From: Escherichia phage vB_EcoP_D
DNA length: 44,931 bases
Sequence record: KY295893.1
Strand: one strand, 5' to 3'
The notes under the pieces are model-generated. The model worked only from the letters and a program-made list of their open reading frames with translations, ran no database searches and had not been told where the DNA came from. The position numbers were made by a program, and so were the translations under genes. Position 1 is the stretch's first letter. Each line of letters opens with the position of its first letter. Positions 20,307-32,096 of the stretch are shown here, piece after piece.

Positions 20307-21191
20307 TTACTTAGTCAACTCTTCTACTGCCTCAGAGATTAAGGGCCATGCTTCATGGCCTTCACCGTAGCCTAGCTTAACCAGTTCGCGGCGTGCCTTG
20401 TTAACTGCTGTTTTCTTCGTTGCCTCCTCAGCGCTTAAACCTAAGCGAGCATAGAAGCAGGAAGATTTGAATTGCGGCAGCATAGGCGCGGCTGCCTTCT
20501 TGCTTTCGCGTGCGCTACTTAAGGAGGCGATGCGGTCATTGGCTGCCTGTAATTGCTCAGTCAGTGCTTTAATTTGTGCCAGCAGACCAGCAATAGCGGC
20601 ATTCTCAGTATTAGCCGTGTTATCCAGCGGCGCGGCCTTCGGTGCCTCCGGCTTGCTTTCCTCTTCCCATGGTGCTGATTCGTCGGCCTCCTGCTCGCTC
20701 GCGGGTGGCACTACCTGCGGCGCTTGCATTTCCTGTGATTCTGCGGCCTCAGTCGCGTTCTCCTGCGGTTTTACCGCCTCAGCCTTAGATTGTACCGTTT
20801 CAGTCTTTATCTCTTTCTTAGGTTCAATCAGGGCGTTTACGGCATTAGTGTCCAGCTTGCCAGCTGCGGCGAGTTCTGCGGCCTTCTCCATGATTATATT
20901 TTCATCAGCGAAAGGAACAAGCGCCAGCATTACACGCATAGCCACACCTTTAAAGCGTTCGTCTCCTTCAAAGACACGGGCTACACTCATCAGCTTGTAG
21001 CATTGTGCCTTCTTGATGCCGAACTCTGATTCTACATAAGCTAAAAAGTCTTTTTGACCTTCGAAATCACCGCGTAATTCATTCAGACAAGCGCCAACTT
21101 TGATGTAAGAAGTGCCGATATTGTCTAAGTGCTGCTTGATTTCAGCGGTTGCAGCTTCACGAACAGACAGAAGGGTGTTTTCAGTAGTCAT
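20307..21191 (-). CDS. hypothetical early protein with acidic low-complexity middle and coiled coil
   Basis: 294 aa from ATG 21191 (RBS AAGGTG); track start 21200 is GTG. No family recognised. Confidence 0.55.
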   Translation of the reverse strand: MTTENTLLSVREAATAEIKQHLDNIGTSYIKVGACLNELRGDFEGQKDFLAYVESEFGIKKAQCYKLMSVARVFEGDERFKGVAMRVMLALVPFADENIIMEKAAELAAAGKLDTNAVNALIEPKKEIKTETVQSKAEAVKPQENATEAAESQEMQAPQVVPPASEQEADESAPWEEESKPEAPKAAPLDNTANTENAAIAGLLAQIKALTEQLQAANDRIASLSSARESKKAAAPMLPQFKSSCFYARLGLSAEEATKKTAVNKARRELVKLGYGEGHEAWPLISEAVEELTK

Positions 21192-21254
21192 AATAGTCAC
21201 CTTATATAGTGTAAGTAAATATCACATAGCCCACACAGGCAGGCTATAGGCTAG

Positions 21255-21482: not shown

Positions 21483-21545
21483 AGTCTTAACTCCTAGTAA
21501 GTGAAAGTTTAATCAGGCGCTACCGTAGCAACGCCTTGTTAAGCC

Positions 21546-21568
21546 TTCTCTTATAGTGTCAGCTAAAT
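21546..21568 (-). promoter_or_regulatory. phage RNAP promoter-like, SP6-type subclass with A at +1 (ATTTAGCTGACACTATAAGAGAA)
   Basis: -17 to -1 differs from the SP6 consensus only at -11, but +1 is A; located in the early region upstream of the RNAP gene. Confidence 0.45.
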
Positions 21569-21676
21569 AGTTTGTATGTAGTACCTAGCACTTCCTCACG
21601 AATCTGCGCAAATCGTAAGGAACATTTCAGGGTTACACCGTCTGAGAAGATGAAGTTATATTGCCTTTCCATCTTA

Positions 21677-22006
21677 TTATTCCTCTTCTCCGCCTTCATA
21701 CCAAACTACATCGCTGTCATTTGGTACATCATTATAAAGAGCTTCATAGATGCGAGCTTGTAGAATCTTGGTTACATCCTTCGTATCAGGAATCAAACCA
21801 GCATCTTCAAAATCAACATCAATGCCATCAGCAGCCATCACAGTAAAGATTTCGCTGTAATAAACTGGCACCATGCTATCTACAACCTCATGCAGTGCAT
21901 CAGAGTAATCATCATCTTCACGAATCTCATCGTACTTGATGCGCTCGTTGAATGCTTCAACAGTTGCAGCCAGAAGGTTGTAGTAAGCGTTAGCGTTGCG
22001 TTCCAT
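21677..22006 (-). CDS. ocr: Ocr-like DNA-mimic anti-restriction protein (T7 gene 0.3 homolog)
   Basis: 109-aa highly acidic ORF; IKYDEIREDDDYSDALHEVVDSMVPVYYSEIFTVMAADGIDVDFEDAGLIPDTKDVTKILQARIYE aligns with T7 Ocr as I recall it; RBS GAGGA. Confidence 0.8.
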   Translation of the reverse strand: MERNANAYYNLLAATVEAFNERIKYDEIREDDDYSDALHEVVDSMVPVYYSEIFTVMAADGIDVDFEDAGLIPDTKDVTKILQARIYEALYNDVPNDSDVVWYEGGEEE

Positions 22007-22080
22007 GATTTAATCCTCATTAGTTAGTTAGGTTACATTATAGGGCACTCAAAAGAATACCCTAGGTTTAACCTATCCAG

Positions 22081-22114
22081 ACTAAGAAGCGACTACCCAT
22101 ATTGTTAAAGAGCG
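22081..22114. repeat. 34-bp inverted repeat, left copy
   Basis: ACTAAGAAGCGACTACCCATATTGTTAAAGAGCG is the exact reverse complement of 22362..22395. Confidence 0.8.
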
Positions 22115-22181
22115 TGGCTTGTGCCTTGATAGGCTGGCTAGTGCCAGCAACTATCTTATAAGATACTATTCACAAGTTTAT

Positions 22182-22319
22182 CTATTTAGCATTAATTGCA
22201 ACCACTTTACTATAAAGTTTATCGTGTTTGCTCTTATCTGTGTTAGCTTGCCAAGCGGCATAAGCAACAGCAAGTTTCTCTTGCAATGCATCATAGCGTT
22301 TACGTTGTGCGTTAGTCAT
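22182..22319 (-). CDS. hypothetical small protein (45 aa)
   Basis: MTNAQRKRYDALQEKLAVAYAAWQANTDKSKHDKLYSKVVAINAK with RBS AAGGTG; its RBS, ATG and first codons lie inside the 66-bp direct repeat. Confidence 0.3.
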   Translation of the reverse strand: MTNAQRKRYDALQEKLAVAYAAWQANTDKSKHDKLYSKVVAINAK

Positions 22320-22361
22320 GATAGTTCACCTTTGTTAGTAAGCCTATCAAGACACAAACCA
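22296..22361. repeat. 66-bp direct repeat, copy 1
   Basis: Identical to 22396..22461, exactly 100 bp apart. Confidence 0.85.
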
Positions 22362-22395
22362 CGCTCTTTAACAATATGGGTAGTCGCTTCTTAGT
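22362..22395. repeat. 34-bp inverted repeat, right copy
   Basis: Reverse complement of 22081..22114; sits between the two 66-bp direct repeats. Confidence 0.8.
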
Positions 22396-22461
22396 GCGTT
22401 TACGTTGTGCGTTAGTCATGATAGTTCACCTTTGTTAGTAAGCCTATCAAGACACAAACCA
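22396..22461. repeat. 66-bp direct repeat, copy 2
   Basis: Identical to 22296..22361; carries a second copy of the RBS and ATG, giving an alternative 35-aa ORF. Confidence 0.85.
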
Positions 22462-22518
22462 GATTGTTAAAGAGCTAGGTTAGTGCCTTGATAGGCCAGC
22501 TATTAAGCTGGCTTATTG

Positions 22519-22731
22519 CTACAATTCTCCATCATTCAGTGCTTTAAGCCATCTGTAACCAGTGGCCTTACTCACATTAAGATACATGTTACAGAAGTCC
22601 ACGAACTCATCATGTGTTGGCTGTTTGTCTGCCTTATAGTGTGCAAGCAGTACAGCCATCTTCTTGATAATCCGCTTCTCTTGTTTCTCACGTTCCATGC
22701 GTAATTCGTGAGCGATGTCGCAGTAGTTCAT
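22519..22731 (-). CDS. hypothetical early protein with helix-turn-helix-like segment
   Basis: 70-aa ORF, RBS AAGGTG; C-terminal VSKATGYRWLKALNDGE resembles a DNA-binding HTH. Confidence 0.5.
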   Translation of the reverse strand: MNYCDIAHELRMEREKQEKRIIKKMAVLLAHYKADKQPTHDEFVDFCNMYLNVSKATGYRWLKALNDGEL

Positions 22732-22857
22732 AGTTCACCTTAGTAAGTAGTTAGCCTACCAAGGCACTAGCCAGATTGTTAAAGAGCGGGATGTTTAAAG
22801 ACGTCGCCGTCTTGATGCTTAATGTAGCCTTGTATGCCGTGGTTGTCAATAGTTAAT

Positions 22858-23082
22858 TTAGAGATTTGTCGTGATTACTTCATCGTAATCATAATCTTCA
22901 CTACCTAGATACTCAGTAATGACTTGGTTGTCATACTCAGATACTAAGGTAACTCGGTGATATTCAGTGTCGTAATCTATCAAATAGTGATACACATCAA
23001 CACCTACGCCAGCTTGCATCATATCATCGTGGAAGCGAATAGCTTCGCTAGCTGATTCAAAGAATACCTCATGTTGATACAT
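22858..23082 (-). CDS. hypothetical early protein
   Basis: 74-aa acidic ORF, strong RBS GAGGGAGGG; ATG overlaps the upstream stop (TAATG). Confidence 0.5.
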   Translation of the reverse strand: MYQHEVFFESASEAIRFHDDMMQAGVGVDVYHYLIDYDTEYHRVTLVSEYDNQVITEYLGSEDYDYDEVITTNL

Positions 23083-23261
23083 TATTTACCCTCCCTCAAC
23101 TCATCTATCATGTTACGGTATTGATTAACCGTATCGGTCCAACCTTCGTTAAGAAAGCGGTGATACAAGGCTAACTCATCATCTGTAAGTAATTCGTTGT
23201 TACGAATCATGTAACATAACAGGGTGAAGAGAACGGACAGTTCACGGTTATTTAATGTCAT
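23082..23261 (-). CDS. hypothetical early protein
   Basis: 59 aa from ATG 23261 (MTLNNRE, RBS AAAGAGGG); track start 23270 is GTG. Confidence 0.45.
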   Translation of the reverse strand: MTLNNRELSVLFTLLCYMIRNNELLTDDELALYHRFLNEGWTDTVNQYRNMIDELREGK

Positions 23262-23475
23262 GATTAGCACCCTCTTTAAGAGTTTTGATAATGCGGTTAT
23301 ATGCTGTACCAGTTATAACTAATTTATTACCCATCTTAAGATCAATATAGTGCAGATACTTAGGCGAATAATCATAGTTATCTGGTGTGCGCATCTTACA
23401 TAAGTCATAACCTTTATCGAGGACGTGCTGAATCTCATCAACTGGCATGTTGTACGCTTTTACTTGTACTTTCAT
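23248..23475 (-). CDS. hypothetical early protein, first gene after the early promoter
   Basis: 75 aa from ATG 23475 (MKVQVKAY, RBS GAGGGA); track start 23517 is GTG. Confidence 0.45.
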   Translation of the reverse strand: MKVQVKAYNMPVDEIQHVLDKGYDLCKMRTPDNYDYSPKYLHYIDLKMGNKLVITGTAYNRIIKTLKEGANHDIK

Positions 23476-23698
23476 AGTTAATCCCTCATTCAATAAGTAA
23501 TTAACCACGGCATACACAGGTTACACTAAGCAAATTGTTAAAGAGCATTGCGCTAACCTTGGTTTATCGTGGTAGGTTATGCTTGCGCCATCTTCCACTA
23601 TCTAACATTGTTTAACGGCTTCAGTAGCTAGGCCGGATAGTTAAGGACGCTCTCTATCATTCACCCTGAGTGTTTAATGTCGCTCCCGACTGATTGCT

Positions 23699-23727
23699 AA
23701 TGTATACCTGTTAACTGCCTATGTCAA
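23699..23727 (-). promoter_or_regulatory. candidate host sigma70 early promoter (-35 TTGACA, 17-bp spacer, -10 TACATT)
   Basis: Minus strand reads TTGACA-taggcagttaacaggta-TACATT, with an AT-rich stretch upstream; lies between the short-repeat array and the first early gene. Confidence 0.5.
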
Positions 23728-23794
23728 CACTAAATCGCACTAAGATAGATTATTTATGTGATACCTGTCACAACTGCTAAGGTAAACCTAGGTT

Positions 23795-23810
23795 GTCTAA
23801 CGTGTGAGAC
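23795..23810. repeat. palindrome-like element GTCTAACGTGTGAGAC
   Basis: One arm mismatch relative to the GTCTCAC-NN-GTGAGAC family; upstream of the early promoter. Confidence 0.5.
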
Positions 23811-23949
23811 TAAGGAAAGCAATAGATACAGAGCTAGGATAGGCTAGGACGGCTAGGTTTCTGGTGTTCCTCCTACTGCATCTTATCACTATTACCTACT
23901 CTCAGCGGTCTACCGACCGCGACCTAATTGCATCTTATAGCTTTAGCTA

Positions 23950-24300
23950 TGCAATCACTAAGGTCTGGCACTAAGACTAACTAAGGTACACTACTAAGTT
24001 GATACTAAGCTAAGCACTAAGGCTTTAACTAAGGCAGCCCACTAAGGCTAACCTAAGCCATCCATCAAGGAACAACCTAAGGTACACGTGAGCGAGTGAA
24101 CGGAGCGCAAGCGGAGTGAACGAAACGAACAGATAGCCCACACCCTCACACCTTGTCAAACACTCAGGAATTGCCCTAAAACGGCCTGTGTAAGCCCTAA
24201 GCGGTTGCACTAAGGCAATCACCTTGTCCAACACTAAGGCGTGCCCTAGCGCTTCCTAGGCGTTCTACTTGTGCAGCCACTAAGAGCAGACCTCGGCAAA
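23950..24300. repeat. array of short CTAAG(G) repeats (CCTTAGT on the coding strand)
   Basis: At least 14 copies of (C)ACTAAG(G) in ~350 bp, plus longer near-repeats CACCTTGTC(A/C)AACACT(C/A)AGG at ~24145 and ~24214; non-coding. Resembles in layout the 7-bp CCTAAAG arrays next to the T7 terminal repeat. Confidence 0.6.
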
Positions 24301-24384
24301 CCTCAGCCAACCCGTCGAGCTTCCTGCTGCCGCAGGTTGAAGACGGCCCAGCCTAGCCCAATTCCCAAGCCAACCGCAGCGCGG

Positions 24385-24426
24385 CCCCATATGGGGGAAA
24401 TCCGGCGAGGGCGAGGGCGAGAGAGC
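24385..24426. other. candidate genome-terminus region: CCCCATATGGGGG palindrome plus GGCGAGGGCGAGGGCGAGAGAGC
   Basis: Coding-strand reading TCTCTCGCCCTCGCCCTCGCCGGATTTCCCCCATATGGGGCC parallels the T7 left end as I recall it (TCTCACAG...TTCCCCCATAGGGGG); non-coding and GC-rich. Confidence 0.4.
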
Positions 24427-24483
24427 TGACACACGCCTACATCAAAATTTTTTTGACTTTGGTTACTTTGTGACCACCTTTGG

Positions 24484-24639
24484 TTACACTAAGTCGAAAC
24501 CTTGTGGCTTCTTCATGTAGCACTGGATAGTTCCACCAAGTACCTTCTGGCTGGCTAAGGCCGACTCCTCGGACTCATGAATCTTCCTGAGTACATTCTT
24601 CTGGAATGGACCTACACCATACGTATGAATCCAAATCAT
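24484..24639 (-). CDS. hypothetical small protein downstream of the tailspike
   Basis: 51 aa from ATG 24639 with strong RBS AGGAGG; track ORF 24484..24693 extends upstream without RBS. Confidence 0.4.
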   Translation of the reverse strand: MIWIHTYGVGPFQKNVLRKIHESEESALASQKVLGGTIQCYMKKPQGFDLV

Positions 24640-24836
24640 GTTACCTCCTTTGGAATACACTAAGAGCAGACCTAAGCCTGCCCTTGTGTACACTAAGATA
24701 TTAACCTGCTTACGCAGAAGATGCAGAAGGTTTCTTCATGGTACGACGTTGAACATCCTTGGCAATGGCATAAGCCTGCTTAGGGTCACGTCCTGATTGA
24801 ATAAGTTCTTCTGTGTTCTGGAGTACAGCAGCTTGC

Positions 24837-27272
24837 TTAACTGATTTTATTAGTGGCATACATATCCTCTAACTTGTCTAAACGATAACGAGTATAAGCA
24901 GCCTCCAAGATTAAGATTTCACTATATCTAACACCAAACTGACCTTCTTCGAAGGAGACAATGCCGAAGTCGATTGCATCTAACCCTTCGGATGCAAAAG
25001 CAGCTACAATGTCTTGTGCCAATACACCAAAGTGAGTGTGGTGCACACCACGAGACATCTCACCAATCAACTTGTACTGCTTGAAGCTAACCTTACCCCA
25101 TGCCTTTAGTACACTCTCATCAATACCTTGTGATCCATACTTATGAGTGGCATCAGACGTAATAATAGGGTCACTTGTAAGATGGATAGTAGTGAATCTA
25201 TTACGAGGGCCTCCAGCAGGATACACGTTATCATTGTATGGCATGATAGCCCCACTTTTGAACAAGTGCTCATTGGCATTATATACTGCGCGTCTAGAAG
25301 TACTAGAACCTGCTCCATGTAAGGTAATTTGCGCACCGGTATCTGCTGCTGTACCCTCTCCCCCAGAGATGATAACACGTTGTGCGGTTGGGTTATCCGT
25401 TGGTATAGTCTTACCAATGAACCCATATTCACCTTCCATCAGCATCTCTGAGCGAATATTAGCACTTGTACTTGCCTTCAGGGTAAGGTGTTCGACAGTC
25501 ATATCTGCGGCAACTACCTCTCCTGATAAGTGAAGTGGAGCAGGAATAGTACGAATACCATCAGTACCCATGAAGGTAGGTATAGCCTGACCCGGAGTTG
25601 CACCATATGTAAACTTACGAGATACACGATTGTCATTTGCAATCTGCATCTTATAGCAGTATATATCAGTGGGGTGTCCATGACCTTTAAATGGGTCTTT
25701 ATCTTTGTTGTCACCATAAGTCATTGGGTTGAAATGGTTTTCTCCACCAAAGATATAGTAAATGTAGCTGTCTTTAACTACTACCGAACCTACACCTACA
25801 CTAGAGTTCACAATGTCACCCTGATAGATTTGGTCTGTGATGTTAACCCATTCAATGTCATCTGCATTCCACTTGTTTACATTCAATCGTGCATAGAAGG
25901 TACGAGGATAAGATGCCTTGTAACGATCATCTGGTGCACCTGCTTCCCATTCATTTTCTGCACGTTCTGAACCAAACATAATAAGGTCATCTCCTACTTT
26001 AGCAAAAGGTAAGGTAGTATGATGAACATTATGTGGAAATCTTAGTGACTCCCAAGTTTGACCTATATCTCTACTACGATGCAGAGAGCTTCCTAGTCGA
26101 TCGCCACGAGTACCACGAGTGATAAGGTACAATACACCGTCATAGTACTTGATGCATGGCTCTGCCGCATCTGGTTCATACTCAGATGGTATCTGACGAC
26201 GAACATAATTAGATGGGCTATTGAAAGCATCAGGGAAGTAGAAAAGCCCAACTTCTCGTGGAGCTACATCACCTTGATGATAGCCCATAACAAAGCCATT
26301 GTTATCAATAGTAGCAAAGCTATGCACCTCTGTGACACGAGGGATTAGACCAAGATCTGTCTTACGCCAAGGAGATTTATGGAAAGAAGTACCCATGTGC
26401 CAACTCTTTCCAGCGTTATTCAAATCTGAAGTCTGCTGGTTAGGTGTAAGAACCGTGAAGTTGTCCTTATCTATTACTGTTGCAACCTTCATATCACCAG
26501 ATACACCTGTTACCGCAGAGTTAGAGAAGTTAACAAAATCACCAACGAAGAGTCCGTGATCAGGTACATGGATTGTTGCATATCTCTGATTTGCAGCCTT
26601 AGTGATACCACCAGTAAGATGCAGACTACGAGACATAGGGCGATCCCACAATGCACAATTGGTTAGTGCGTTCTTGGCTAAAGTACGTGTTTCAATCATG
26701 GCAAACAGACGGTTGCGACATACACCCATACTCATACAATGATAGTTCACTGTAGGGTAATCTGGATGCAGATCAGTTAACCACTCTGGAGTAGACCATG
26801 TTTGACCATCGTCACCAGACTTAACCCATGATACATGCAGACGACTAACACCATGACGGTCGCTACCCATGTAAGGTGCATATATCACGTTCTCATATAC
26901 AAACGCTTTGTCTTGAGGCCAAGCATTGTAATAAGGGTTATCCGTGATTTTATAGAGTTCACCATTGATAAAACCTTTACTCACATAGTAAAGAGGTTGA
27001 CCTGCTAAACGTTCCCATACGAAGCGGGTGTTATAGAATCGCTCCATATCAGGTAAAGATGATACTTTGTAAGTAGCACCAGCACCGTCAATTCTCTTAC
27101 CTGAAGCCATCGCTGCATTTACTGCATCTTGGTCGTTTGTCTTACCATCACCTTTGGCTCCAAAATCTTTAAGCGATACAACCTCGGTGAGCTTGTCATC
27201 CAAGTTACGCCAGATTGCACCTGCTATTTTACTCTTGAATTTAACTAATGAAGAACCTAGTCTTTGAATCAT
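24837..27272 (-). CDS. tailspike endosialidase (endo-N-acetylneuraminidase) with C-terminal intramolecular chaperone domain
   Basis: 811-aa ORF with two Asp-box sialidase motifs (SGDDGQTW, SRDIGQTW) and a large beta-propeller-sized body; length matches the 811-aa endosialidases I recall for K1E/K1-5; RBS AAGGAGG. Confidence 0.85.
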   Translation of the reverse strand: MIQRLGSSLVKFKSKIAGAIWRNLDDKLTEVVSLKDFGAKGDGKTNDQDAVNAAMASGKRIDGAGATYKVSSLPDMERFYNTRFVWERLAGQPLYYVSKGFINGELYKITDNPYYNAWPQDKAFVYENVIYAPYMGSDRHGVSRLHVSWVKSGDDGQTWSTPEWLTDLHPDYPTVNYHCMSMGVCRNRLFAMIETRTLAKNALTNCALWDRPMSRSLHLTGGITKAANQRYATIHVPDHGLFVGDFVNFSNSAVTGVSGDMKVATVIDKDNFTVLTPNQQTSDLNNAGKSWHMGTSFHKSPWRKTDLGLIPRVTEVHSFATIDNNGFVMGYHQGDVAPREVGLFYFPDAFNSPSNYVRRQIPSEYEPDAAEPCIKYYDGVLYLITRGTRGDRLGSSLHRSRDIGQTWESLRFPHNVHHTTLPFAKVGDDLIMFGSERAENEWEAGAPDDRYKASYPRTFYARLNVNKWNADDIEWVNITDQIYQGDIVNSSVGVGSVVVKDSYIYYIFGGENHFNPMTYGDNKDKDPFKGHGHPTDIYCYKMQIANDNRVSRKFTYGATPGQAIPTFMGTDGIRTIPAPLHLSGEVVAADMTVEHLTLKASTSANIRSEMLMEGEYGFIGKTIPTDNPTAQRVIISGGEGTAADTGAQITLHGAGSSTSRRAVYNANEHLFKSGAIMPYNDNVYPAGGPRNRFTTIHLTSDPIITSDATHKYGSQGIDESVLKAWGKVSFKQYKLIGEMSRGVHHTHFGVLAQDIVAAFASEGLDAIDFGIVSFEEGQFGVRYSEILILEAAYTRYRLDKLEDMYATNKIS

Positions 27273-29427: not shown

Positions 29428-29450
29428 TCCTTCTATAGTGTCCGGTAATT
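29428..29450 (-). promoter_or_regulatory. phage RNAP promoter, main subclass (AATTACCGGACACTATAGAAGGA)
   Basis: +1 G at 29433; overlaps the terminase stop codon; upstream of the paralog pair and lysis genes. Confidence 0.55.
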
Positions 29451-30180
29451 AATAAGTCCTTGAAATCCTTGCAGAAAGTGTATTTCTGCTTGCCGATTTA
29501 CTCCTGTAATTCTGACCGTATACTCTTTGCTGCATAGCCACGGAAGTGTTGGTTACTCTTCGCTCAGTGCCATAATCTCCATAGAGCATTGCCCTACGGA
29601 GGTGAGGTGTGTTCATAGCTTGGATATAATCGCGCATCTCCTGCGCTCTGAGGCGATTAATCCGTGTAACCTCGTCATAGTCTATCTGAGAAGTTAATTG
29701 CCGTATAGCGCCATACAGCGCGTCTAAGCGGTCATCGTGCCGGAGGCTGTTCTTCTCAATCGTGATGTTCGACATTTGATTGAAAAGGCTGTATGACATG
29801 CGTAGTTCAAGCGGATAGTGCTGTACCGACTCAAAATCAGACTTGACCATCTCTGCGTTGAAGATGAGCCTGTGGGCCGCCATTAGTGGCTCTAGTGTTT
29901 CAATGATACGCAACTCTTTCTGTCCGGTGGCGTAATCTTCCTCCAGAGTCACAGGCCACTCTCGTTCAAAGTATGGCTTTATAACGGCCTCAAACGCGCC
30001 ATGACCAAAGTTCTTTTCAATGAATACCTCTTTAACACCTGCCTGCTTTGCGGCCTGCACAATGCGATTCAGGGACGATTCGCGGTATCCTCCCGGCACA
30101 CCAAAGCACTGATACACATAAATGAATGTGCCGTGCAGGAAGACGATAGCCACACCCGTTTCATCCCCATTCTTACCTCC
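29449..30180 (-). CDS. terminase large subunit, exon 2 (nuclease domain)
   Basis: Encodes GGKNGDETGVAIVFLHG... and a downstream HDDRLDAL acidic motif; in frame with exon 1 after removal of 30181..30926; spliced product ~633 aa. Confidence 0.75.
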   Translation of the reverse strand, partial: GGKNGDETGVAIVFLHGTFIYVYQCFGVPGGYRESSLNRIVQAAKQAGVKEVFIEKNFGHGAFEAVIKPYFEREWPVTLEEDYATGQKELRIIETLEPLMAAHRLIFNAEMVKSDFESVQHYPLELRMSYSLFNQMSNITIEKNSLRHDDRLDALYGAIRQLTSQIDYDEVTRINRLRAQEMRDYIQAMNTPHLRRAMLYGDYGTERRVTNTSVAMQQRVYGQNYRSKSASRNTLSARISRTY

Positions 30181-30706
30181 CGGTTTGAACGTGACGTGCG
30201 AGCCAACCCTTGTGGTGTTTACGTAAACCATGTGCCACCTTACGCATATTCTGAGGTGTTAGGTTGTGCTCTTTACAGAAGTCAGTAATGCAAGTTACAA
30301 GAAACTCTTCACCATCTGGAGAAGTGAATATGTAATCTTTGCCAGTACCTTTGTTGTAAGGTGTCATGCCTTTCTTGAACTCAGTGGCAACAGACAAGTG
30401 CTGTCCTTTCTTGATTTCAGTGGCAATACTTATGCGTTCACCTTTCTCGATGTTACCTGCTTTGCGATAACCACCTTTACCCTTATTCCAACCCATGTTG
30501 TCATGTGGGCGTAGCTTCTCTTCTAGTGCATAACACTCTTCTTTGCTACCAGTGAATAAGATAACGTACTCGCGGCCATCACAAAGACGGCCTGCACACT
30601 TGTGCTCTCTCATACGCTTCTTAATATCGGAGGTTACACCAATATAACCTTGCATTACATCAGTTTCACCAACAACACGAATATGATAAACTTTATGCTC
30701 TGTCAT
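30173..30706 (-). CDS. GIY-YIG homing endonuclease, intron-encoded
   Basis: 177 aa, RBS AAGGGAG; N-terminal KVYHIRVVGETDVMQGYIGVTSDIKKRMREH fits the GIY...YIG...R...E pattern, followed by repeated basic GxxxxxxxIATExKKG segments; stop codon lies 6-8 nt past the predicted 3' splice site. Confidence 0.85.
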   Translation of the reverse strand: MTEHKVYHIRVVGETDVMQGYIGVTSDIKKRMREHKCAGRLCDGREYVILFTGSKEECYALEEKLRPHDNMGWNKGKGGYRKAGNIEKGERISIATEIKKGQHLSVATEFKKGMTPYNKGTGKDYIFTSPDGEEFLVTCITDFCKEHNLTPQNMRKVAHGLRKHHKGWLARHVQTGR

Positions 30707-30926
30707 ATTTAACTCCCTTCAATTGTTACGTTAATTCGCTACTTTAACTTCTACTAGTCACCTAGTAGGTCGGACTATATCTTAGGCTTGCGCCTCCCTC
30801 TGTTTCAGACCGCTTGGCCTTACAGTTAGTCTCTACACGTTCCTGTTATTGCAACAGGCTTCGCTCGGTATTGTCTCAGTGAGAGTTCCACCGAATTAAG
30901 AGGGTTTTACGCTGGCAGAGGTGTTT
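30181..30926 (-). mobile_element. group I intron in the terminase large-subunit gene
   Basis: Intron RNA contains matches to the group I core elements: P-like AAUUCGGUGGAA (30886..30897), Q-like AAUACCGAGC (30863..30872), R-like GUGUAGAGACUAAC (30825..30838), S AAGAUAUAGUCCG (30771..30783). Predicted P1 pairs exon GCUGGU with GCCAGC (30911..30916) with a U.G at the splice site; predicted P10 pairs exon 2 GGAGGU with ACCUCU; last intron base is G. Confidence 0.75.
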
Positions 30927-32096
30927 ACCAGCGGGGTCAATGTACATAATTTTACGGGTGACAGCGCCCCATTCATACGGTCGGGCCACAGGGCGATACA
31001 TAAAGTCTGTAGGCTTATTGCCATACTTCGGTGCATCGCCAATGATGTTAATAGAGTCGTTGCTCCATGTAGGCATCACAGGGACTTCCTCTGTACCGAA
31101 TGAAGTGAAGATGAGGTTGTTCAGGCGTAGCGGATAGCGGTCAGCATCCATCATGCGAGTGTTAAGCATAAACTGAAGCTGGAACTTAGCCGCACCCTGC
31201 GAGATTTCCTTCTCAATCAGCACATCATCATCATACATTTCAGGTGCACAAGGGGCACCACTATTGCCATCCAAGCCATACCCTGAGCGAAGTGCTGGGT
31301 TGTCCTTCATATCCTGCACAATCATAGGTGCAAGGAAGTCGCCATAGCATTGCTCCTGCTCCACTGAGGGATAACGTGCAGTCCAGATACGAACAGAGTA
31401 ACCACGAGCAGGTAGGTTATTGTAGATAGAGTTTACGTTCTGAGGAGTACCAAGGTAGATAATATCACCAAACTGGTTAATAGATTCAAACTCCTTGGTC
31501 AGTTCCTCAAGCAAGGCACGTCCTGCCGCTGTACGAGCATTCTGCATTGACTCAACGTCATCTGCTAGGATGATATCTGCACGCGCACCCTGCATACCTG
31601 CTTCGATTGAGTAACAAGACACAGAAGGCGACTTGTCACTGCCACGTAGGGTGTAATGAATCTCAAATGCCTTAACTGAGGCACGGTCCCCTGCGTAGAT
31701 GTCCGGTAGCATAAACTCAAGAAAGTCTAGGCCACGGAAGATTTTAACTACCCAACCTGCGATTTCCTCTGCTCGCTTGGCGTTTTGGGATACAACCATG
31801 ATACGCTTATGCGGTTCATGAATGATACGGAATACTGTATAGATTGCTGATAGTGTTGTCTTAGCGATACCACGAGGCGCTTCGATGAGGCGATACTTGT
31901 GTCCGTAGAATAGGAACTTCAAGATATCAGCCTGCATACGAATCAGATGAGGGTTGCCTGCAATTAAGTTATGAATAACTGTGTCTGCAAAGAGAAGCAA
32001 ACCTTCCGCTGTGTAAGGAAAGGTCTGCTGTAACTCCTGTAGCATCTCCCATCTGGCAAGAGCCTCCGCTTGTGATTCTCTTGCCTTAGCCATCAA
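30927..32096 (-). CDS. terminase large subunit, exon 1 (ATPase domain)
   Basis: Encodes 390 aa up to ...KIMYIDPAG; track ORF continues 16 codons into the intron to a stop (...KHLCQRKTLLIRWNSH). ATG at 32093 follows an in-frame TTG at 32096. Confidence 0.8.

Follow-up and report, generated by a model that had tools for sequence, protein, structure and literature searches.

The present analysis concerns the early region of Escherichia phage vB_EcoP_D (record KY295893.1), in particular a 13-nucleotide motif which recurs ahead of its small genes, the sequences flanking this motif, and a 100-bp insertion located between two of its copies. The window, that is, the whole stretch of 44,931 nucleotides that was analysed, is a K1E-like Vectrevirus genome, and in alignment it is 99.9-100% identical to the Escherichia phages vB_EcoP_C and vB_EcoP_R. 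Besides the 100-bp insertion and short gaps at the record ends, it differs from vB_EcoP_R by 3 single-nucleotide polymorphisms (SNPs) and two indels of 26 and 2 bp; the differences from vB_EcoP_C amount to 3 SNPs and one indel of 9 bp. The early genes, including a homologue of ocr, are carried by the minus strand and are transcribed leftward by the E. coli RNA polymerase. Because sigma-70-like promoters are located upstream, and the first match to a promoter of the SP6-type phage RNA polymerase is found only beyond the last copy of the motif (Table 1), the segment 23546-22101 is read by the host polymerase alone.

The first gene block of this segment consists of three open reading frames (ORFs), which are positional homologues of the K1E genes 1, 1.5 and 2, and it is followed by genes encoding proteins of 70 and 45 amino acids (aa). 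The comparison of the small early proteins with PHROG returned matches of unknown function only. The features of the region, including the stem arms and motif copies discussed below, are collected in Table 1.

Table 1. Features of the early region, listed in the order of leftward transcription; positions refer to the window, and z values compare the duplex energy with shuffled sequences
Feature	Position	Strand	Basis or remark
Sigma-70-like promoter	23727-23699	minus	promoter scan
boxA-5, first in the early transcript	23534-23546	minus	13/13 match to rrnB leader boxA and T7 813-825
Z stem, 5′ arm	23503-23531	minus	2 nt after boxA-5; pairs with 22817-22844; -43.8 kcal/mol, z -7.2
Internal sigma-70 promoter-like site, TTGACA-17-TACATT	22821-22849	minus	10/12 matches; 33 nt upstream of boxA-4
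Z stem, 3′ arm	22817-22844	minus	overlaps the spacer and -10 of the internal host promoter
Small GNRA-loop hairpin, AGACG-GCGA-CGUCU, 5-bp stem	22799-22812	minus	fold; between the internal promoter and boxA-4
boxA-4	22775-22787	minus	exact match, consensus scan
First B stem, 5′ arm, after boxA-4	22753-22772	minus	pairs with 22478-22497 around the 70-aa gene
70-aa early gene	22519-22731	minus	position of K1E gene 2.5; cargo of the first B-type cassette; PHROG 26099, unknown function
First B stem, 3′ arm, before boxA-3	22478-22497	minus	local alternative partner 22441-22460, giving the site-3 hairpin, z -6.2
boxA-3	22463-22475	minus	exact match, consensus scan
Second B stem, 5′ arm, after boxA-3	22441-22460	minus	inside copy 2 of the 66-bp repeat; in the ancestral layout pairs with 22116-22135 around the 45-aa gene, -48.6 kcal/mol, z -8.6
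66-bp direct repeat, copy 2	22396-22461		B arm, ribosome-binding site, ATG and 8 codons
35-aa chimeric ORF	22312-22419	minus	created by the insertion; duplicated ribosome-binding site and ATG
Insertion, 100 bp	22296-22395		66-bp repeat copy 1 (22296-22361) and 34-bp inverse copy (22362-22395)
Inverted boxA copy	22363-22375	plus	boxA on the non-transcribed strand only; antisense boxA in the early mRNA
45-aa early gene	22182-22319	minus	position of K1E gene 2.8; cargo of the second B-type cassette; PHROG 16783, unknown function
Second B stem, 3′ arm, before boxA-1	22116-22135	minus	duplex and covariation analysis
boxA-1, last boxA, upstream of ocr	22101-22113	minus	exact match, consensus scan
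Arm A, after the last boxA	22070-22100	minus	source of the inverse copy within the insertion
SP6-type phage RNA polymerase promoter match, the most upstream one	21548-21568	minus	ends the segment read by host RNA polymerase only

An earlier, sequence-only reading of this DNA had described a 66-bp direct repeat, a 34-bp inverse element, five copies of a 13-mer, and ORFs of 45 and 35 aa, and both direct reading and a repeat scan found all of them in place, well outside what chance would produce. The 13-mer ATTGTTAAAGAGC is present in five exact copies, four on the plus strand as written and one inverted. With up to two mismatches allowed, no extra copies appear in the 44.9-kb window, and shuffled sequences gave a mean of 1.64 matches, with 0 of 100 reaching five. 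Read on the minus, transcribed strand, the motif is GCTCTTTAACAAT, which corresponds to GCUCUUUAACAAU in the mRNA. In this orientation, all five copies are identical at 13 of 13 positions to the boxA of the E. coli rrnB leader, and the same 13 of 13 positions are found in T7 at nucleotides 813-825, between promoter A3 and gene 0.3. The boxA of the E. coli rrn spacer differs by one base and is followed by ATCTGG, as are the phage sites 3 and 4. The gamma-proteobacterial boxA consensus is GYTCTTTAANA (PMC5725501), and it occurs in the window at five sites only, all inside 22101-23546. By its sequence, the recurring 13-mer is therefore an rrn-type boxA, and because of this identity and the confinement of the consensus to the five sites, it is best understood as an RNA signal for the loading of NusB-NusE rather than as a promoter or an operator. 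The rrn-type boxA is the loading site of NusB and NusE (S10), and it makes the host RNA polymerase resistant to termination. T7 can do without Gp2, its inhibitor of the host polymerase, when the boxA anti-termination element is mutated or promoter A3 carries a down-mutation (PMC3709561, citing Savalia et al. 2010). The scan of 21500-24900 against Rfam, at E≤1, gave no relevant match.

The occurrence of boxA in related phages was followed in the early regions of SP6, K1-5 and K1E, of 15 IMG/VR contigs found through their RNA polymerase gene, and of 10 diverse GenBank phages, to which 10 NCBI/Logan/ENA contigs encoding the 70-aa early protein were added. In the SP6-like genomes, the stretch from the left end to ocr contains 2-4 copies of boxA, and the more distant loci of PhiM1 and an Edwardsiella phage carry one each. 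All 71 boxA sites counted in 30 early regions are located on the sense strand, and the ten added contigs hold no boxA on the opposite strand. The sole opposite-strand match among the SP6-like loci lies in one of these loci (L138), around 1.3 kb upstream of its first sense boxA, and none of the relatives surveyed has an inverted boxA at the position of 22363-22375. In the 2006 record of K1E, the equivalent of 22101-22113 is a last boxA with an extra base (GCTCTTTTAACAAT), which is either an off-consensus boxA or a homopolymer sequencing error. A further observation comes from an IMG/VR contig of an unrelated virus (L085), where three boxA-consensus sites are spaced around 560-590 bp apart on the reverse strand (9434, 9997 and 10588), each preceded by an identical 45-nt repeat, and this virus may represent a further group of phages with arrays of boxA.

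The placement of the motif agrees with a role in the transcript. Four copies are in the sense orientation of the early mRNA, as a boxA has to be, and one of them stands ahead of each early gene block; the copy at 22363-22375 is on the wrong strand. The four sites are located downstream of the sigma-70-like sites and upstream of the first SP6-type promoter match, and they lie between promoters and ribosome-binding sites. The sequence-only reading had suggested early promoters or operators, in which case the 13-mer and its flanks would act at the level of DNA, either as promoters or by binding a phage or host protein. Such a view takes account of the intergenic position of the motif, of its recurrence ahead of genes, and of the TTAACA within it, which loosely resembles a -35 hexamer. 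However, the sigma-70 scan (-35 and -10 at 16-18 nt spacing) does not report the motif, and the TTGACA-17-TACATT promoters are separate elements upstream of it. The motif is identical to a well-characterised RNA signal, its orientation is strictly sense in the 30 counted genomes and the ten contigs, and its flanks, as described below, covary as RNA with G·U pairs. An action at the DNA level is therefore very unlikely, and the suggestion was not upheld. The TTGACA and TACATT hexamers are also found upstream of the second boxA in most relatives whose flank was displayed.

Between the internal promoter and boxA-4, the transcript can form a small hairpin (Table 1). Its loop is GCGA, GGGA or GAGA at this position in the relatives, and is thus of the GNRA type throughout, and another promoter module has GCC-GAGA-GGC at the same spot. 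The position of this hairpin resembles that of the rrn boxB.

The sequences on both sides of the motif were noticed by the sequence-only reading as GTGCCTTGATAGGC-like flanks in either orientation. The flanks are indeed present, but their long-range pairing, the identity of boxA and the position of the genes on the minus strand were missed. The flanks GCCTATCAAGGCAC / GTGCCTTGATAGGC are the arms of long-range RNA stems of 20-29 bp, with 20 bp in the B stems and 29 bp in the Z stem. The 5′ arm starts 2 nt after one boxA and is complementary to an arm located directly upstream of the next boxA. As the arm that follows one boxA pairs with the arm that precedes the next, the stems enclose the early gene cassettes one by one. 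In the direction of transcription, the first cassette consists of boxA-5, the 5′ arm of the Z stem, the three ORFs and the 3′ arm of the Z stem. The second cassette is formed by boxA-4 and the two arms of the first B stem enclosing the 70-aa gene, and the third by boxA-3 and the two arms of the second B stem enclosing the 45-aa gene, after which boxA-1 is reached.

The pairing is general among the relatives. A stem duplex is found in 37 of 38 distinct boxA-to-boxA intervals, with energies between -37 and -53 kcal/mol and, in comparison with shuffled sequences, z between -5 and -12. Among the 20 intervals of the ten added contigs, z is -4.9 or lower in 17. In the alignment of 12 distinct B stems, 98.8% of the cells are paired and double changes are seen at 4 of the 20 pairs. 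The 15 aligned Z stems are paired in 97.6% of the cells, with double changes at 12 of the 29 pairs, a result reached by 0 of 500 shuffles. When the arms are slid against each other as a control, pairing falls to 24-47% over the B and Z alignments, or 26-37% for Z alone. About 20 bp or more of double-stranded RNA thus flanks the cargo and is kept by compensatory change. Among the cells that depart from Watson-Crick pairing, 52 are G·U and 7 are A·C, and the duplex of the sense strand is more stable than that of the antisense strand in 33 of 38 cases. Such an asymmetry, together with the greater stability of the sense duplex, points to selection acting on the sense RNA, and is not expected from homogenisation at the DNA level. 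The flanks are accordingly described as long-range stems with respect to their structure, and their function would be to allow the excision of the mRNA of each cassette by RNase III.

An alternative explanation is that the arms are DNA inverted repeats serving recombination or cassette mobility, kept alike by gene conversion and without a role in RNA, and that boxA is merely a shared crossover. The gain and loss of cassettes exactly at boxA, the mosaic combinations of arms and cassettes among phages, and the private insertion, which shows that the arms provoke rearrangement of DNA, would all follow from it. Gene conversion alone does not account for the excess of G·U over A·C cells or for the sense-strand stability in the 33 duplexes, nor for the fixed distance of 2 nt between boxA and the arm on the RNA. 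A purely DNA-level origin of the arms is consequently considered improbable, and stems acting in the RNA are preferred.

A T7-type local RNase III hairpin at each boxA was also considered as a general rule and was rejected. Only 3 of 63 distinct boxA contexts hold a local hairpin with z below -4; these include site 3, the only site in the window that folds well. The strong hairpin at site 3 results from the adjoining of two B-type cassettes. The core of the Z 5′ arm (23519-23530) is a 12-mer, GGTTACACTAAG, which has further copies at 24203-24214 and 24482-24493, near the genome end or terminal-repeat region. Other short repeats near the genome end are 24149-24168 with 24220-24239, and 23976-23991 with 24072-24087.

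The cassettes are also found outside the SP6-like phages. An example is the Klebsiella phage vB_Ko_K74PH129C2, a T7-like Przondovirus, in which the order boxA, arm, gene, complementary arm and boxA is present (L168:3002-3277), with the 45-aa gene as the cargo. In its relative KpV767 (L172), a single boxA occupies the place of the cassette. Because one phage has the cassette and the other has one boxA, the cassette was gained or lost exactly between two boxA copies, and boxA appears to be a crossover site for the exchange of cassettes between phage subfamilies, as shown in this one instance. In Pectobacterium phage PhiM1 (L167:730-793) and the Edwardsiella phage (L170:3004), around 64 nt are 84-89% identical to 22411-22475 of the window. 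This common segment comprises boxA, the B arm, the ribosome-binding site and the start codon of genomes otherwise unrelated at the DNA level. Among the SP6-like phages themselves, the combinations of arm and cassette are mosaic.

The third cassette of the window is interrupted by the insertion of 100 bp. The two copies of the 66-bp segment are exact and lie 100 bp apart, and the 34 bp that follow the first copy are the exact reverse complement of 22081-22114, which contain boxA-1 and the sequence of arm A. Together with the neighbouring arms, a 71-nt inverted repeat results, in which 22070-22140 and 22336-22406 are complementary at 87%. The insertion has two novel junctions, …CACAAACCA followed directly by CGCTCTTT…, and …CTTCTTAGT followed directly by GCGTTTACG…. 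The left junction is located inside the B arm, where the arm of boxA-3 and the inverted arm of boxA-1 are alike but for 2 of 19-21 positions, and its switch point is an exact CCA/TGG, that is, 3 nt of homology. The second junction is without microhomology.

The insertion is absent from vB_EcoP_C, vB_EcoP_R and K1E, in which everything around 22296-22395 is colinear in alignment. A 231-bp query spanning the site matches 37 GenBank phage records, none of which has the 100 bp, and both junctions are missing from the ten independent NCBI/Logan/ENA contigs. One junction sequence, taken as a 25-mer, has no matches in IMG/VR or JGI metagenome contigs, and look-ups of the 35-aa and 91-aa ORFs spanning the insertion found neither of them on record. 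Judged by these sequences, the insertion is a derived state private to this genome. As it is absent from all relatives, in spite of the near-identity of vB_EcoP_R and vB_EcoP_C, it is either a very recent private change or an artefact. The recombination scar considered by the sequence-only reading is thus in essence a fitting description of the 66+34 bp structure, which is a private insertion in comparison with all relatives.

The anatomy of the insertion, in which the flank of the partner arm is copied exactly in inverse orientation and the junction lies within the homology of the arms, fits a two-step replication template switch at a quasi-palindrome. In such an event, an imperfect inverted repeat templates the copying, and the palindrome grows longer and more perfect (PMC7202029). 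In the window, a nascent DNA strand would have been copied through the B arm adjoining boxA-3 and would then have re-annealed to the nearly identical inverted B arm adjoining boxA-1. The copying of 34 nt of the flank of the boxA-1 arm would have placed boxA and arm A in inverse orientation. The strand would have returned to the original template 66 nt back, so that the arm, the ribosome-binding site, the ATG and 8 codons were copied again, giving a tandem duplication by slipped return. As in quasipalindrome-associated template switches of E. coli and yeast, an inverse copy (here of 34 bp) is present and the junction lies inside the arm. The classical quasipalindrome events affect few bases of a short hairpin; here, in contrast, the arms are around 260 bp apart, 34 nt are added, and a 66-bp tandem duplication follows.

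It has to be considered that the 100-bp segment was created during assembly or library preparation, for example by fold-back chimeras at the inverted arms, and that the true layout is that of vB_EcoP_C and vB_EcoP_R. The insertion is found in no other public sequence searched, and the exactness of both copies fits a very recent event and an artefact alike. The assembly of the window also looks not fully finished: compared with vB_EcoP_R and vB_EcoP_C, 140 bp are lacking where its two ends would join, and the window has the look of a linear contig, not closed, from a terminally redundant genome. By the annotation of vB_EcoP_R, these 140 bp comprise the beginning of the capsid gene and the intergenic region between capsid and scaffold. 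For the near-identical published genomes, MiSeq reads were assembled with SPAdes (PMC5582158). If the window is part of the same series, as may be supposed, a depth of around 200x would outvote minority chimeras (PMC5582158). Moreover, the segment lies around 22 kb away from the contig ends. A simple fold-back chimera would have a single junction and would not switch back to the template, whereas two independent novel junctions, one with 3 nt of homology and one with none, are needed here, and a de Bruijn assembler needs reads for both. For this reason, an artefact is less likely than a real insertion: the former is regarded as unlikely, and the insertion is quite likely real.

A further possibility is that the 71-nt inverted repeat around the 45-aa gene constitutes a programmed invertible switch, either of the hin/gin type or driven by recombination. 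The inverted repeats do flank a segment of 195 bp with a small gene, as such a switch would. Against it, the 71-nt inverted repeat is found only in this genome, and the opposite orientation of the segment is seen in none of around 40 related early regions. In the near-identical genomes no invertase or serine recombinase is annotated, and an inversion would leave the sequence almost unchanged. A programmed switch is extremely unlikely on these grounds, and a private insertion by template switching is the preferred account.

The outcome of the insertion is a longer palindrome, an antisense boxA and the 35-aa chimeric ORF. The 35-aa and 45-aa ORFs have their first eight residues, MTNAQRKR, in common, and the 35-aa ORF stops just downstream of the ATG of the 45-aa gene, in the other frame. 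It has no PHROG match and no called gene on record, and it is a by-product rather than a gene. Being antisense in the early mRNA, the inserted boxA is not a Nus site. In the minimum free energy fold of the derived mRNA, the inserted segment forms an uninterrupted duplex of around 53 bp with boxA-1 and arm A, whereas boxA-1 is unpaired in the fold of the ancestral mRNA. The last boxA of this genome is thus predicted to be buried in a duplex. In itself, the insertion is an ordinary rearrangement or an artefact, and its significance is chiefly that of a caution for annotation, the 35-aa ORF being a by-product. If it is real, this genome is a natural mutant with a masked last boxA, ready-made for testing the proposal set out below.

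Three observations were made elsewhere in the window. A 26-bp segment at 20756-20781 is present in the window and vB_EcoP_C and missing from vB_EcoP_R. An ORF of 297 aa (20307-21200, minus strand), intact here, corresponds to two separately annotated genes of vB_EcoP_R, R_31 and R_32. At around 29449-32093 on the minus strand (R_50 to R_52), the large terminase is annotated in the near-identical genomes in two pieces around a homing endonuclease ORF, which suggests an intron- or intein-like interruption.

The boxA array, the stems bracketing the cassettes and the private insertion probably belong to one joint explanation. In rrn operons, both the leader and the spacer contain a boxA. The Nus complex that forms on boxA suppresses termination, fixes the 5′ nut-like RNA beside the RNA exit channel and acts as an RNA chaperone, and RNase III releases the 16S and 23S rRNA by cutting long-range stems (PMC8632103). 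By analogy, each boxA of the phage would load or re-load the Nus complex on the host polymerase, and the 5′ arm tethered to it would be held at the polymerase until its 3′ partner emerges. RNase III would then cut the helix of 20-29 bp and excise the mRNA of each cassette, as it does with the early RNA of T7 at local hairpins, and the next boxA would re-arm the polymerase after each cut. The full proposal, in which the host-transcribed early operon of the SP6-like phages imitates an rRNA operon, with cassettes held in covarying stems and excised by RNase III, and with boxA as the crossover between subfamilies, goes further and is put forward tentatively, as a possibility that may well turn out to be wrong.

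Several points weigh against this explanation. The covariation was drawn from related sequences, and two divergent genomes, Pm5460 and L140, contribute many of the double changes. Inverted repeats homogenised by DNA recombination would also look complementary, and it is only the asymmetry between G·U and A·C that opposes such an origin. In three intervals (L143:3284-3888, L178:1287-2028 and L181:1445-1915) the arms are non-cognate and form no duplex (z around 0), which appears to be the outcome of module replacement or cassette loss; these exceptions could reveal whether the stems are required. A partner of arm A downstream of ocr was sought in the ancestral layout by an inverted-repeat scan and a sliding duplex scan, and none was convincing. 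The lack of microhomology at the second junction of the insertion and the unfinished look of the assembly count on the same side.

Antitermination through boxA is viewed as a device of rRNA operons and lambdoid phages, with one copy known in T7. No paper combining boxA with SP6, K1E or Autographivir* was found in the searchable library, a search that did not extend to the genome papers of SP6, K1-5 and K1E, and an earlier description of multiple boxA copies in SP6-like phages is possible. The boxA of T7 is already known; what may be new here is the array of perfect boxA copies fused to covarying stems which bracket the cassettes. If the proposal is true, such arrays extend the logic of the rrn operons, including Nus loading, RNA chaperoning and excision by RNase III, to phage mRNAs. 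It would also help to explain the shuffling of small early genes, involved in host takeover, among the Autographiviridae.

Among the known systems, the cassettes resemble the PeSL cassettes of T4-type phages, in which short conserved regulatory motifs flank small early ORFs and act as crossover points (PMC2839356). As in PeSL, the cassette of the Przondovirus is bounded by two copies of a shared motif and is gained or lost there. The PeSL cassettes are units of a promoter and a stem-loop terminator; here, by contrast, boxA forms the shared core, and the gene lies within the stems.

The second system is the early operon of T7, which contains the same 13-mer, placed likewise after the host promoters, and the CTGG that comes next in T7 matches sites 3 and 4 as well. 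T7 has one copy in its first 7 kb, while the window has four sense copies, each fused to an arm of a long-range stem. The boxA of T7 is followed by the local RNase III hairpin R0.3. The RNase III sites of T7 (R0.3, R0.5, R1, R1.1 and R1.3) are intercistronic double-stranded elements of the polycistronic early RNA transcribed by the host polymerase. They are local hairpins, whereas the conserved pairing described here spans 150-850 nt.

The closest parallel is provided by the rrn operons of E. coli. The boxA is identical and is repeated ahead of each successive cargo, and behind each boxA comes one strand of the long-range helix around this cargo. The small hairpin that precedes boxA at site 4 corresponds to the order of boxB and boxA in the rrn operons (PMC8632103). 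The phage differs in that no boxC was recognised with confidence and that both the cleavage and the Nus loading are putative. It differs also in the cargo itself, which is not rRNA but the translated mRNA of small phage genes.

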